A program made the translations under genes and the position numbers. From Verrucomicrobiia bacterium (GTDB taxonomy: Bacteria; Verrucomicrobiota; Verrucomicrobiia; Palsa-1439), in contig DATJBF010000046.1 of the NCBI GenBank assembly GCA_035515475.1, positions 917-64,916 of the forward strand: a stretch of DNA of 64,000 nucleotides, read 5' to 3'. Positions 43,213 through 58,110 of this stretch are shown in pieces; the first letter of the stretch is position 1, and each line of letters starts with the position of its first letter. The notes under the pieces were generated by a model. It was given only the letters and a program-made list of their open reading frames with translations, searched no databases and had not been told where the DNA came from.

Positions 43213-43890
43213 TCAGGGCAGGTCCAGTTCCTTGATCCGCCGGTCCAAATTCAGCAAACGCGTGTCGACGTGTCGACCGAAGATGTAATGCCCTCGTTTG
43301 GCTTGCTGGCAAAGTTCCCTAAGAATGTGGAGATTGTGGCCCGTAATTCGCAGCACTTCGGTCTCGAACCGTTCCGGGGCCGGCACGCGGAGCTTGAGTT
43401 GCTTGATCTGCGCGCGAAGCACCTGCAGGGTCGCGTCGTGGGCGAGGGGCGCCAACTCAAGTTTGTCAAAATCCCACAGAATCATTTTCAAGTGGCCCAT
43501 GTCCGACCACGCGAGGCTGCGGGTGACGACAATCATCGGGTGCGACTCGTGAATGTTGTCCAAGAGCGATGCCAGCTTCGGGCCAACCCGGCCGACGTGG
43601 TCGAAGACAAAGCTACGGTTCGTGCCAGCAGTTGCCTTGAGGATCGTGCGCTTGCGGACGATGTTGTCGGCCTTTGAGACGGCGAGATTGAGCTGCGCGA
43701 GCAACGATTCGCACGCTGTCTTCAACGTCGCTGTGTCAGCGCAATACAAGACATTCGGCTGACTCCGGCTCGCTTCGGTCACCAGCGCGGTCTTGCCGAC
43801 TCCTTCGGCACCAAACACGACGAGGTTCCTGCCCGCACACAGGTGCTCACGCACGGTCCGTAGTTCGCGGTCTCGACCGAAAAGGTTCAT
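43213..43890 (-). CDS. AAA+/P-loop ATPase, hypothetical
   Basis: Walker A VVFGAEGVGKTAL near the N-terminus (start at MNLFGRD). Last gene of the operon headed by leader copy 1. Confidence 0.5.
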   Translation of the reverse strand: MNLFGRDRELRTVREHLCAGRNLVVFGAEGVGKTALVTEASRSQPNVLYCADTATLKTACESLLAQLNLAVSKADNIVRKRTILKATAGTNRSFVFDHVGRVGPKLASLLDNIHESHPMIVVTRSLAWSDMGHLKMILWDFDKLELAPLAHDATLQVLRAQIKQLKLRVPAPERFETEVLRITGHNLHILRELCQQAKRGHYIFGRHVDTRLLNLDRRIKELDLP

Positions 43891-43897
43891 GGGCAGT

Positions 43898-44245
43898 TCA
43901 GCCCACCTCCACCACGCTGTGGAATCCGCCCAAGTCATCCGACACGCGCGCGATGGCCTTCGGGTCCAGTTGGGGCGTGCCATCAACGAGGAAATGGTAT
44001 TCGTGGTGGCCGCGCTTCAATTCGACGGAGCATTCCCAATAGCCATCGACGGTCCTCTTCATCAGGTAGCTCTTGAATCCCTCGCCGGTGAACTTCCCGA
44101 CGAGCCGGACTCTTTTCGCCTTCGGGGCGCGGAACCGGAACACGACGCATTTCACCAGTGGGAGCACGGGCCGCCTCTCGACAATGTGTTCGTCGAACAC
44201 ATAGAGGTCCGGCTTGTGGATGTAGGTTGAGGGCCGTCTTTTCAT
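43898..44245 (-). CDS. Small CBM48 / AMPK-beta glycogen-binding-domain-like protein (115 aa), paralogue of 24195..24482
   Basis: VRLVGKFTGEGFKSYLMKRTVDGYWECSVELKRGHHEYHFLVDGTPQLDP is a CBM48 core. Confidence 0.5.
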   Translation of the reverse strand: MKRRPSTYIHKPDLYVFDEHIVERRPVLPLVKCVVFRFRAPKAKRVRLVGKFTGEGFKSYLMKRTVDGYWECSVELKRGHHEYHFLVDGTPQLDPKAIARVSDDLGGFHSVVEVG

Positions 44246-44254
44246 CGTTGCTCC

Positions 44255-55855: not shown

Positions 55856-56154
55856 GTTTTGCCGCTGCCGACCGGATGTTGCGTGCGGCGCGCGGATTTG
55901 TAGCTCGTGGAAAAGTAGTCGCCGCCCAGACTAGTGAGGCCATCGATGTCACCCGACCGCAGTTTGTTGGCCATCTTTTCGAAGAATCGCGTCACGTCCT
56001 CGTCAAAACTCGTTTGGCGGCAGGAGCGGCAAACCCAGCCCTCGGTGTTGACGACCAGGATGTGCGGCCAATGCATGATGCTGTGCTCGACCTTCTGCCA
56101 ATGCACTGCCCAGCTTTGACAATAAGGACACCGTTTGAATCCCTGAGCGCTCAT
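55852..56154 (-). CDS. Small zinc-ribbon protein (100 aa)
   Basis: CPYCQSWAVHW ... CRSCRQTSFD. ATGA-coupled on both sides. Confidence 0.5.
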   Translation of the reverse strand: MSAQGFKRCPYCQSWAVHWQKVEHSIMHWPHILVVNTEGWVCRSCRQTSFDEDVTRFFEKMANKLRSGDIDGLTSLGGDYFSTSYKSARRTQHPVGSGKT

Positions 56155-57653
56155 CGGCCGATCATCTCCCGGTGGCCGACGAATTTCTCGATGACGCGCC
56201 GCCAGGAAGTTTGCTCTACACCCTTGGGTTCATTGGCGTGGCGGTAGTCGCGTTTGCGGTCAAACTCCTGGAGTTCAGTTTGCAGCGCAGCAAGCCGCCC
56301 GCGCTCGGCTCCGAGCAGTCGCTGAAGTTGCGGGTGATCGGGAGACTCGTCCAACGCCATCTGCAGGTGCGGCAGGCAGATGCCGAACGAGTCGTGATAC
56401 TTGGAGGCGAAATCGGGATCGTCGAAGAAGTCGAGAAGATTCGACAGGGTGAGGTATTCGGTCGAGGAGTTCCAATCGCACATCGGACAGTTGGCGGTGG
56501 CCGGATACAGAAGCGGAGCGTCGGATGCCCGTCGCTTGGCGCGCGGCTTGGTCGGCTCGGTAACGGCGGCGCTGCGCTCGATCACGGTTGCCAGAAGTTC
56601 CTCGTACACGACGGCGAGGCCCGCCGGGGCGGTGGGCGTGCGCGCTGCCAACCAACCGTGTGAGTTACAGAAGCCACCCGAGCGCCGGAGCGCCAGGCGA
56701 ACGCCCGGGTCCATGATCCCTTCGTGGAAGAGAAGTGTCATCTGTCGTTCGGACTCGCGCTCGATCAGGGCGCAGATCACGCAGCAGTCGGCATCCAGCG
56801 CGTCACGAAGCCGATACAACGGCAGCCATTTCGACGCGGGCGGCTCGCGGGGGAAGACGAGGTTGAGTGCAGACCTCTTCGTGCGTCGTGGCCGGTCCCT
56901 ATGAAAAACCTCGCGCTTGCCGACGAAGAGTTCGATGGCGCGCCGCCGCGCGGCTTGGTCCGTATCCTTCGGCTCGTTGGCGAGGCGGTCATCGCGTTTG
57001 CGGCTGAACTCCTTCAGTTCGGTTTGGAGCCCGGTGAGTTTTTCGCGTTCGGTAGCCAGCAACTCCGGTAGGTGTGGGTGGTCGGGAAATCCTCGCATCG
57101 CCAGGTCAAGGTGTGGGAGACACAGGCCGAAGGACCGTTGAAATGCCGTACGCAATTCGGGATCATCGAACCATTTCAGTAGTTCGCCGAAATAGACCCG
57201 CTCGTTAAAGCGCGCCGTTTCGCATACGGGACAGGGGGCAGTGGTCTCCAGCACGGACGCGGATCGCCCGCGACGACGGGACCGGTGCAAGCGTCGAGGC
57301 GACCCGGCGGCTGCCAGTTGGCGGACCTGGGCCTCGGTCCGCTCAATCACGGAACGCAGCAAATCGCCGTAGATGATGGCGATGCCGGAGTCGGTGTGGG
57401 GGATGCGAGTGGCCATCCAGGCATGCGCATTGCAGAACCCTTTTGACTTGTAGAGGCGCAGCCGAACGCCCACATCGCTAACGTTCTCGTAAAACAAGTT
57501 GTCGAGTTGCCGGTAACAAGCGCGTTCGACCAACGTGCAGATCGGACAACCCGCCGCATCGAGCGCATCGCGCAGATAGATGAAGTCCAGCCACTTGACC
57601 GGCTCATTTTGTGGACGAAGAATGCTCATGCTTGGAATGTCCGCGACCGACAA
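56151..57653 (-). CDS. Tandem-duplicated CPxC...GFCxxHxW / CPxC...GLCLPHL domain protein (two roughly 250-aa repeats), function unknown
   Basis: Repeat 1 GCPICTLVERACYRQ...GFCNAHAWM...CPVCETARF...SFGLCLPHLDLAM...ANEPKDT. Repeat 2 CCVICALIERESERQ...GFCNSHGWL...CPMCDWNSS...SFGICLPHLQMAL...ANEPKGV. Confidence 0.7.
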   Translation of the reverse strand: MSVADIPSMSILRPQNEPVKWLDFIYLRDALDAAGCPICTLVERACYRQLDNLFYENVSDVGVRLRLYKSKGFCNAHAWMATRIPHTDSGIAIIYGDLLRSVIERTEAQVRQLAAAGSPRRLHRSRRRGRSASVLETTAPCPVCETARFNERVYFGELLKWFDDPELRTAFQRSFGLCLPHLDLAMRGFPDHPHLPELLATEREKLTGLQTELKEFSRKRDDRLANEPKDTDQAARRRAIELFVGKREVFHRDRPRRTKRSALNLVFPREPPASKWLPLYRLRDALDADCCVICALIERESERQMTLLFHEGIMDPGVRLALRRSGGFCNSHGWLAARTPTAPAGLAVVYEELLATVIERSAAVTEPTKPRAKRRASDAPLLYPATANCPMCDWNSSTEYLTLSNLLDFFDDPDFASKYHDSFGICLPHLQMALDESPDHPQLQRLLGAERGRLAALQTELQEFDRKRDYRHANEPKGVEQTSWRRVIEKFVGHREMIGR

Positions 57654-58110
57654 AACCCTTCCTGTCCAGCAAGCCGGTCAGTTCAGAAAGCAGGGACTGC
57701 AACTGCGGCAGTTCGGCGTTGAGGAACTCGGTGGTCGCCGGGTCCACCGCGCCGTAGCCCCGCAAGTAGCGGGGCTTGATCTCCTCAATGCTCACGTTTG
57801 CCAAAACGAGCGCGGCGAGCGCCGAGCGCAGTTGCGGCTCCTGCTGAGGTTCCAAATCGAGTCGATCGCCAAGAATCTGCATCTTGGCCTGAATCTTCGA
57901 GATGAGATCGTCGACCAAGTGCGCCTGCTCGCGGGGCAGTGGCTCGCTGTGGCGGGTTAACACACCCTCGGTGGGAGGGCAGTGAAACACGTGTCGCAGT
58001 TGCAGCAATCGGCTCTCGATGTCGGCCAACGTGATCGAAATCGACCTGCGCTGTGGCTCGCGGAGGTCGAGGCGGTTGATGTTCATGAGGACCGATCTTT
58101 CTGTTCGCAT
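57604..58110 (-). CDS. Hypothetical protein (168 aa), first gene of the long minus-strand operon
   Basis: ORF immediately downstream of leader copy 3. Its 3' end overlaps the next gene by about 50 nt. No recognisable domain. Confidence 0.45.
   Translation of the reverse strand: MRTERSVLMNINRLDLREPQRRSISITLADIESRLLQLRHVFHCPPTEGVLTRHSEPLPREQAHLVDDLISKIQAKMQILGDRLDLEPQQEPQLRSALAALVLANVSIEEIKPRYLRGYGAVDPATTEFLNAELPQLQSLLSELTGLLDRKGFVGRGHSKHEHSSSTK

Follow-up and report, generated by a model that had tools for sequence, protein, structure and literature searches.

The fluoride riboswitch is an RNA class in which F- is bound together with Mg2+ and a pseudoknot is locked, and it acts as an ON-switch. 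Enolase is a classic fluoride-inhibited enzyme, and fluoride defence beyond exporters and enzyme replacement is, to our knowledge, poorly understood. RNAs of the crcB motif precede mutS-like, ion-transport and formate-hydrogen-lyase (FHL) genes, often with overlapping terminators, and an association of mutS-like genes with the riboswitch was already on record in 2010 (PMC2864571). Such an association is also described for enolase, pyrophosphatase and phosphoesterases (PMC11139923); in Enterobacter cloacae FRM, enolase was induced 176-fold by fluoride via a riboswitch (PMC5533749), and making more of what fluoride inhibits is a documented strategy, with enolase a textbook member of the fluoride regulon (PMC11139923, PMC5533749). 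Microbial degradation of fluorinated chemicals is limited by fluoride tolerance (PMC11139923). Here we analyse 64,000 nucleotides of a Verrucomicrobiia contig (DATJBF010000046.1; this whole stretch is referred to below as the window), in which a 15-kb block of genes at 43213–58110 is very probably the core of a fluoride-response island, with four riboswitch copies each heading one transcription unit.

The original prediction for this DNA had described the block as a coherent, apparently undescribed machinery, possibly for membrane or stress surveillance or for intracellular conflict, with a shared leader on three of its units. The coherence and co-regulation of the block are borne out, and "stress surveillance" was right in spirit, the stress being, on our reading, fluoride. 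An apparently mysterious cluster thereby gains a defined input signal, and a large, phylogenetically broad set of NTPases becomes tied to a fluoride sensor.

The shared leader and the units it heads

The leader common to the transcription units of the block is the fluoride riboswitch (crcB motif; Rfam RF01734) and not a new element. When the whole window was scanned against Rfam, no family other than RF01734 matched, and RF01734 matched four times, at 39.9–48.6 bits against a gathering score of 34, each time inside the block. All four alignments are full-length (model positions 1–64 of 64), with every conserved aptamer nucleotide aligned. The regions upstream of genes O, I, D and F (we letter the genes A to O from left to right) are accordingly alike, each with a short stem with loop AUGGAGUU, a second stem, and then GAUGACUCCUAC; the core motif of the leader was found five times where 0.4 matches were expected, and a count of five was reached in 0 of 100 shuffles. 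The leader had been reported on three units; it is real, and it is found four times, so that all four transcription units are switched. Because this leader is the fluoride riboswitch, we read the block as a fluoride-stress island.

Copy 1 (45341–45405, minus strand, 45.1 bits) heads D-C-B-A; copy 2 (46383–46442, plus strand, 48.6 bits) heads F-G; copy 3 (52224–52302, minus strand, 46.9 bits), which has an extra hairpin inserted after P1, heads I-H; and copy 4 (58141–58211, minus strand, 39.9 bits) heads O-N-M-L-K-eno. The extra hairpin of copy 3, CCCCGAAGCAUUUCGGGG, is closely like P3 of copy 4, a hairpin of unusual length, CCCCGAAAGCGUUCGGGG.

Each of the four copies lies in a 5' leader and is followed by an expression platform that competes for the pseudoknot strand, with platform folds at z scores of -3.8 to -5.1. 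The pseudoknot strand ACUCCUAC of copies 1 and 4 forms the 5' arm of a 14–15-bp hairpin followed by a U-run: the copy 1 platform (45316–45355, minus strand; fold z -5.1) is a 15-bp terminator hairpin with a T-run, and that of copy 4 (58118–58155, minus strand) is a 14-bp terminator hairpin with U6. These two platforms coincide with the two most terminator-like sites in the region, and the copy 4 hairpin could also end transcription of the FHL-like operon upstream of it. The copy 2 platform (46429–46462, plus strand), as judged from fold and sequence, is a hairpin in which ACUCCUG is paired with CAGGAG, the Shine-Dalgarno sequence that stands some 10 nt ahead of the AUG; control by copy 2 is probably translational, because no U-run follows the hairpin. 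In copy 3 the platform hairpin abuts the AUG. One further candidate, at 45313–45336 on the plus strand, weakly matches a covariance model derived from the four copies; it corresponds to the copy 1 terminator read in antisense, and we set it aside as a false positive, not a switch for the neighbouring gene E.

The regulatory logic that these features suggest, that of a fluoride-inducible island, is well supported, with induction and fluoride binding being predictions from sequence. If cytoplasmic fluoride rises, the aptamers would bind F- and Mg2+ and lock the pseudoknot between the GGAGU loop and the 3' ACUCC, and the ACUCCUAC strand would then be unavailable to the competing hairpin. Where this hairpin is a putative intrinsic terminator (copies 1 and 4), fluoride binding would allow read-through; where it would cover the ribosome-binding site or the start codon (copies 2 and 3), fluoride binding would open translation.

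The genes so controlled were called from a listing of the open reading frames (ORFs) and Pfam scans of the window, which has a G+C content of about 60%, and in general the genes, coordinates and domains agree with those first assigned. M, L, eno, H, C and G each begin at a four-base ATGA overlap of start and stop codons. In the longest unit, all on the minus strand, O (57604–58110) is a 168-aa protein without a Pfam or other family match; N (56151–57629/57653) has two DUF6062 domains in tandem (PF19538, 1e-36, in two stretches), its ATG start at 57629 agreeing with the deposited 492-aa protein and a TTG at 57653 being a possible alternative; M (55852–56154) is a 100-aa zinc-ribbon protein, recognized by Cys pairs in its sequence, with a weak DUF7340 match; L (54128–55855) is a dynamin-like G domain (Dynamin_N, 5e-29) fused to a C-terminal DUF6062; K (53700–54164) has a zinc ribbon and HEAT repeats by Pfam; and J is enolase (eno; 52411–53703). 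The enolase is full-length, with Enolase_N (7e-60) and Enolase_C (5e-120) spanning residues 4–427 of 430. Its ATGA overlap with K, for which it had been singled out as embedded in the longest operon, is confirmed, and its presence there is no oddity but is explained by enolase being both inhibited by fluoride and a known target of the riboswitch.

Behind copy 3, I (50587–52200, minus strand) and H (49025–50590, minus strand; its start overlaps the end of I) are paralogous MutS-related ATPases recognized by MutS_V. Behind copy 2, F (46473–48281, plus strand) is a 602-aa dynamin-like GTPase with a G domain (Dynamin_N, 6e-27) and a putatively helical C-terminal half, and the start of G (48278–48985, plus strand), a HEAT_PBS repeat protein (HEAT_2, 8e-48), overlaps its end. 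The unit of copy 1, on the minus strand, comprises D (44962–45300), a 112-aa Zn_ribbon_9 protein (PF02591); C (44255–44965), a YfcE-type metallophosphoesterase (Metallophos_2, 1e-26; TIGR00040); B (43898–44245), a CBM48/AMPK1_CBM carbohydrate-binding protein (PF16561 and PF02922); and A (43213–43890), an AAA_16 or STAND-like P-loop ATPase (PF13191). This fourth unit, 45300 to 43213, is real, and B within it had been missed. The tight coupling claimed for the units also stands, except that E (45478–46329, plus strand), an FGE-sulfatase-domain protein (PF03781, 1e-51), does not belong with F and G: copy 2 sits in the 143-nt gap between E and F, and E, being upstream of it, is therefore not under the switch. 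For none of the orphan proteins of the block does NCBIfam hold an equivalog.

The proposed paralogous pairs fare unequally. F and L match at 40% identity across 307 aa of the G domain, and H and I, although only 23% identical over 445 aa, are homologous over their full length (hhalign profile comparison, 99.9% probability); G and K, the supposed HEAT pair, have HEAT repeats as their sole shared feature. DUF6062 itself consists of two half-repeats, each with an invariant CxxC...GxCxxH signature, and is predicted to carry two CCCH metal sites. The AlphaFold model of a single-domain DUF6062 relative is all-helical (pLDDT 77.7) and gave no informative match when compared with the PDB.

Conservation of the link between riboswitch and GTPase

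We collected 80 loci around relatives of the GTPases from a species-representative genome collection; they amount to 1.33 Mb and come from about 15 phyla by record title, including Verrucomicrobiota, Planctomycetota, Chloroflexota, Acidobacteriota, Desulfobacterota, Bacteroidota, Bacillota and Pseudomonadota. The covariance model built from the four window copies had P1 as its only structure, P3 having been misaligned by MAFFT. It gave 157 matches at E <=1, and 145 of the best 150 lie inside the 1.33 Mb of GTPase loci; copies of the leader thus occur in large numbers elsewhere. When seven loci were tested again with Rfam RF01734, all seven scored above the gathering score at the same positions, including ones that had reached only about 20 bits in the four-copy model. 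P1 and the pseudoknot (GGAGU loop with 3' ACUCC) are paired in 99.2% of cells across 149 distinct sequences, with compensatory changes in 7 of their 9 pairs, a level reached in 0 of 500 shuffles; slid controls were 46–64% paired. The pseudoknot itself had been left out of the covariance model.

A census of 79 of these loci contained 107 dynamin-family genes. In 65 loci at least one such gene lies in a riboswitch-headed operon, in 56 it is the first gene, and for 55 of the 107 genes an aptamer lies within 150 nt upstream of the start; a plain layout, with a riboswitch and then a GTPase of some 600 aa, recurs in roughly 30 loci. The remaining 14 loci show no apparent link, and several of these are artefacts of crude gene calling or truncated contigs. 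Clustering and Pfam identify as neighbours CrcB (in 8 related loci), DUF190, DUF190-CBS, Na+/H+ exchangers, MFS transporters, Usp and hydrogenase-4/FHL-like complexes, with enolase in about 29 of the GTPase loci. Other genes of the block keep the same company: in other loci, 12 of 13 YfcE relatives are under riboswitch control, 7 of the 8 relatives of the AAA_16 protein A belong to riboswitch operons, and an O-like protein comes before the GTPase in 7 loci. I is followed by H in 24 further loci, with overlap in adjacent pairs, and AAA_16, zinc-ribbon-HEAT, other HEAT, stand-alone DUF6062, O-like and FGE-like proteins are found as well. The neighbourhood is conserved in relatives; the nearest of them (L001, also from Verrucomicrobiia) has the same modules, with 60–86% identity for the genes that have a match, and in it six riboswitch copies head modules, one of them before an FHL-like operon.

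Two further arrangements were observed among the relatives. Genes for cyclopropane-fatty-acyl-phospholipid synthase (CMAS), an M20 peptidase, and DUF3786 with an Fe-S protein also occur inside riboswitch operons (L006:7554–9005, L023:3913–5430, L001:12312–13535, L047:11892–12722). In three Firmicutes loci (L037, L038 and L042, from Thermovenabulum and Fervidicola) a riboswitch-controlled GTPase is followed by MoxR (AAA_3), DUF58 and DUF4129, a chaperone-like ATPase module.

We also made the comparison in reverse, starting from the RNA. With a DNA pattern for the aptamer alone, 80 metagenome stretches were fetched, and the first gene downstream of each of the 81 aptamer copies that they contain was classified. 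That gene encoded CrcB in 43 cases, a Na+/H+ exchanger in 5, DUF190 in 4, a dynamin-like GTPase in 3 (with one further as the second gene), an FHL-like component in 3, a HEAT protein in 2, and a MutS-like and an O-like protein in 1 each; 15 were unclassified and 4 aptamers had no ORF downstream. The GTPase is thus a minority target of the riboswitch, at a few percent, yet the riboswitch is a near-universal regulator of the GTPase family.

Two observations weigh against reading the block as a fluoride-response island. The 64-kb window holds no fluoride exporter (CrcB/Fluc or CLC-F), and no ORF in it matches the CrcB cluster; an exporter may lie elsewhere in the genome. In addition, the FGE gene E has no riboswitch ahead of it in the window. 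In two other loci (L002 and L016) FGE-like genes lie inside riboswitch operons.

Candidate effectors and rival explanations

Once switched on, the block would supply extra enolase and a YfcE-type phosphoesterase, which would replace phosphoryl-transfer enzymes poisoned by fluoride and fit the documented strategy of enzyme replacement. It would also supply the I/H pair of putative clamp ATPases, and two dynamin-like GTPases with their HEAT-repeat, zinc-ribbon and DUF6062 partners. We see a substantial possibility, to which we nevertheless give somewhat less than even weight, that the dynamin family with the P-loop GQFKRGKS (often with DUF6062, as a fusion or as a partner, and with HEAT proteins) and the MutS pair with an altered Walker B motif are dedicated effectors against fluoride toxicity, beyond export or simple enzyme replacement. 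They might act by membrane remodelling that limits the entry of HF or the damage it causes, or by NTP-driven release of complexes locked by metal fluorides. The roles of the GTPases, DUF6062, the HEAT proteins and the MutS2-core-like pair under fluoride stress are what we infer from their domains and company.

F and L have canonical G motifs (G1 GQFKRGKS, G3 DTPG and G4 NK(I/T)D, which in F is NKID), and in both Dynamin_N is above the Pfam threshold. The nearest solved relatives of F are Nostoc BDLP (2j68), IniA (6j72) and Cj-DLP (5owv), and mitofusins are among its closest relatives as well; F aligns with IniA over residues 40–340, with a long C-terminal half beyond. L consists of a G domain, a linker of about 60 aa and DUF6062, with no room for a neck or trunk, and more than 2000 homologues in the database share its Dynamin_N plus DUF6062 architecture. 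The riboswitch-linked GTPase family defined by this P-loop and sometimes fused to DUF6062 appears undescribed.

Analogy with the stress-induced IniA and DynA leads us to favour, tentatively, a role at the cytoplasmic membrane, which the GTPases may maintain or remodel at the expense of GTP when the cell is under fluoride and acid stress; we consider this role possible but doubtful. Three observations speak against it. A sequence-based scan of hydropathy and conservation in 47 aligned relatives of F detected no hydrophobic paddle or transmembrane segment outside the G domain; L is entirely without a stalk; and membrane-related companions are few, with cyclopropane-fatty-acid synthase in 2 loci and a prenyltransferase-like gene in 2.

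In I and H, Pfam detects PF00488 (domain V) only, and neither the mismatch-binding domain I nor the connector domain II of MutS1 was found. PDB profile matches begin at about residue 288, and the structural model aligns with the lever, clamp and ATPase domains only. Smr and KOW domains are absent, so that the proteins do not have the MutS2 layout of a core followed by a C-terminal Smr nuclease domain. In all 41 riboswitch-linked members of the family, which include both paralogues (49025–52200 in the window plus 24 related loci), the Walker B motif is hhhhNE, an Asn replacing the Mg2+-coordinating Asp of the hhhhDE found in canonical MutS and MutS2. By their sequences, I and H would form a heterodimer-like pair of MutS2-core-like clamp ATPases. 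MutS2 of Bacillus subtilis acts on collided ribosomes, and the nearest analogy for I and H would be a clamp on nucleic acid or ribosomes.

The main alternative, which we regard as unlikely, is that these NTPases are neither membrane nor DNA machines but remodellers or traps for metal-fluoride poisoning. NDP-MgF3- and NDP-AlF4- complexes, formed with fluoride and Mg2+ or Al3+, lock P-loop enzymes, and the dynamin-like GTPases, the MutS-like and AAA_16 ATPases and the MoxR proteins of the Firmicutes loci would pry apart, replace or soak up the poisoned complexes. The block does hold an unusual density of NTPases and enzymes of phosphoryl transfer (the two GTPases, the I/H pair, AAA_16, YfcE and enolase), the MoxR-DUF58-DUF4129 module follows the GTPase in three loci, known fluoride regulons act by replacing inhibited enzymes, and the NCBIfam enzyme reactivase KamC, which is of the MutS_V type, scores 1e-19 on H. 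The Asn found in 41 of 41 MutS-like members, a change surveyed within this family, may point the same way. Against this explanation, trapping that is stoichiometric would protect only weakly next to export, and the G-domain motifs are canonical.

Far less probable is the conflict system of the original prediction, which we take here as an Eleos-like (LeoA/LeoBC) anti-phage or intracellular-conflict system with STAND-like and HEAT parts, in which enolase would be a passenger. PADLOC models for LeoA and LeoBC do match F (4e-18 and 6e-16) and L (7e-14 and 2e-12), G matches HEAT-containing candidate defence models, and A is weakly nSTAND-like. The LeoA/LeoBC matches, at 45–64 bits, fall mainly over the shared G domain, however, those of L stopping within its N-terminal G-domain half and the LeoBC match of F reaching residue 449, and PADLOC has no match for the MutS-like, DUF6062, FGE and zinc-ribbon proteins; because the scan yielded only partial LeoA/LeoBC and HEAT matches, we set a role in defence aside as unsupported. 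A fluoride riboswitch stands ahead of all four units, and the family is riboswitch-linked in 65 of 79 loci, in the constant company of CrcB, DUF190, antiporters and enolase and not of defence genes. Among 2.9 million viral contigs there is a single relative of the GTPase-DUF6062 protein, and its place is at one end of a contig of 18,969 bp (L201; IMGVR_UViG_3300032053_018296).

Finally, it is scarcely credible that the leaders only resemble the aptamer, being some lineage-specific repeat or generic terminator, or that they sense another ligand. The motif is short and the strong terminator hairpins of two copies could serve upstream genes, but four of four copies exceed a curated covariance-model threshold over their full length, copy 1 is preceded on its own strand by no gene that it could terminate, covariation of the pseudoknot extends over 149 distinct sequences, and in 43 of the 81 cases sampled independently this RNA stands ahead of CrcB.

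The physiological roles of bacterial dynamins are a long-standing question, and a GTPase family for which a simple chemical inducer is predicted, and which occurs in cultured strains such as Fervidicola ferrireducens Y170 (L042) and Desulfacinum hydrothermale DSM 13146 (L068), opens it to direct testing. If the proteins are dedicated effectors, fluoride would be the first defined physiological trigger for bacterial dynamins, and the "mutS" genes noted beside the riboswitch in 2010 would be explained. In databases the proteins go by the names "dynamin family", "DUF6062" and "DNA mismatch repair protein MutS", the last of which is misleading.

Surroundings of the block and comparison with described systems

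The unit coordinates of the block hold, and the system continues to the right of 58110. There an operon on the minus strand (58266 to beyond 64000) encodes a hydrogenase-4/FHL-like membrane complex, with two Proton_antipo_M proteins, Oxidored_q6, and a fusion of Complex1_49kDa/30kDa with NiFeSe (NiFe large subunit) by Pfam, and it runs off the right end of the window. Because the FHL-like operon of the same gene order in L001 is riboswitch-headed, the island reaches past 58110 and probably has a fifth riboswitch copy, beyond the window, ahead of this operon.

To the left lie a histidine kinase, a glycosyltransferase and other genes without a link to the island. An MFS transporter gene (24643–26082, minus strand) is closely related (1e-111) to an MFS family for which riboswitch control is seen in 8 of 19 cases elsewhere; here the gene is without a riboswitch. 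Two patches, 20000–22000 and 32000–34000, have a G+C content of 0.51 against about 0.60; one holds a 433-aa ORF without a Pfam match, and the other a DDE_Tnp_IS240 transposase fragment (32392–33216) and a stretch with few long ORFs. The window also encodes three AcrB-type RND efflux pumps (10696–18245 and 28086–31196), two of which form a tandem downstream of a gene for a membrane-fusion protein, and a class II ribonucleotide reductase (1906–5049).

Among described systems, the fluoride riboswitch regulon is matched in aptamer sequence and structure, in ON-switch logic with overlapping terminators and in 5'-UTR position, and four of its known target classes (enolase, MutS-related proteins, the FHL-like complex and a phosphoesterase) lie under or near a switch here. 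The block differs from it in having four copies within 13 kb, probably with a fifth, in having no exporter gene in the window, and in adding as targets dynamin-like GTPases, DUF6062, HEAT, zinc-ribbon, AAA_16 and CBM48 proteins, none of which appear in the accessible reviews. The riboswitch and its links to enolase, mutS-like genes and FHL are therefore already known, and to that extent the block is not undescribed. A link between dynamins and the fluoride riboswitch is absent from the searchable papers and reviews, a coverage outside which Baker et al. 2012 and its supplements fall, and within the same coverage neither DUF6062 nor HEAT partners are reported with this riboswitch; the text supplements of the 2010 study do not mention dynamin (PMC2864571). 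The link of the riboswitch to the dynamin-like GTPase family and to its DUF6062 and HEAT partners hence appears undescribed.

The fluoride-resistance operon of E. cloacae FRM is likewise riboswitch-headed and lies on an island, and in it enolase is co-transcribed with genes for stress and phosphoryl transfer; unlike the block, it has ppaC, uspA, gpmA and crcB, a single riboswitch and no NTPase machinery (PMC5533749). Eleos shares with the block two dynamin-family genes per locus and partial HMM similarity, and differs from it in regulation; the block's genomic company is of the fluoride type, and its family is almost absent from viral contigs. Compared with the MutS2 core of Thermus and Thermotoga, I and H are without Smr and KOW, are always tandem diverged paralogues, have NE and not DE in Walker B, and are under riboswitch control. 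With the bacterial dynamin-like proteins (Nostoc BDLP, Mycobacterium tuberculosis IniA, B. subtilis DynA and Campylobacter DLP1/2), F and L have in common the G domain and the P-loop G-x-x-K-R-G-K-S, as well as paired genes and, as predicted for F and L, stress-inducible expression like that of iniBAC. Unlike them, the block would receive its signal from fluoride through an RNA switch, its GTPases have HEAT and zinc-ribbon partners and no detectable paddle, and L has, in place of the stalk, a DUF6062 domain that is predicted to bind metal.

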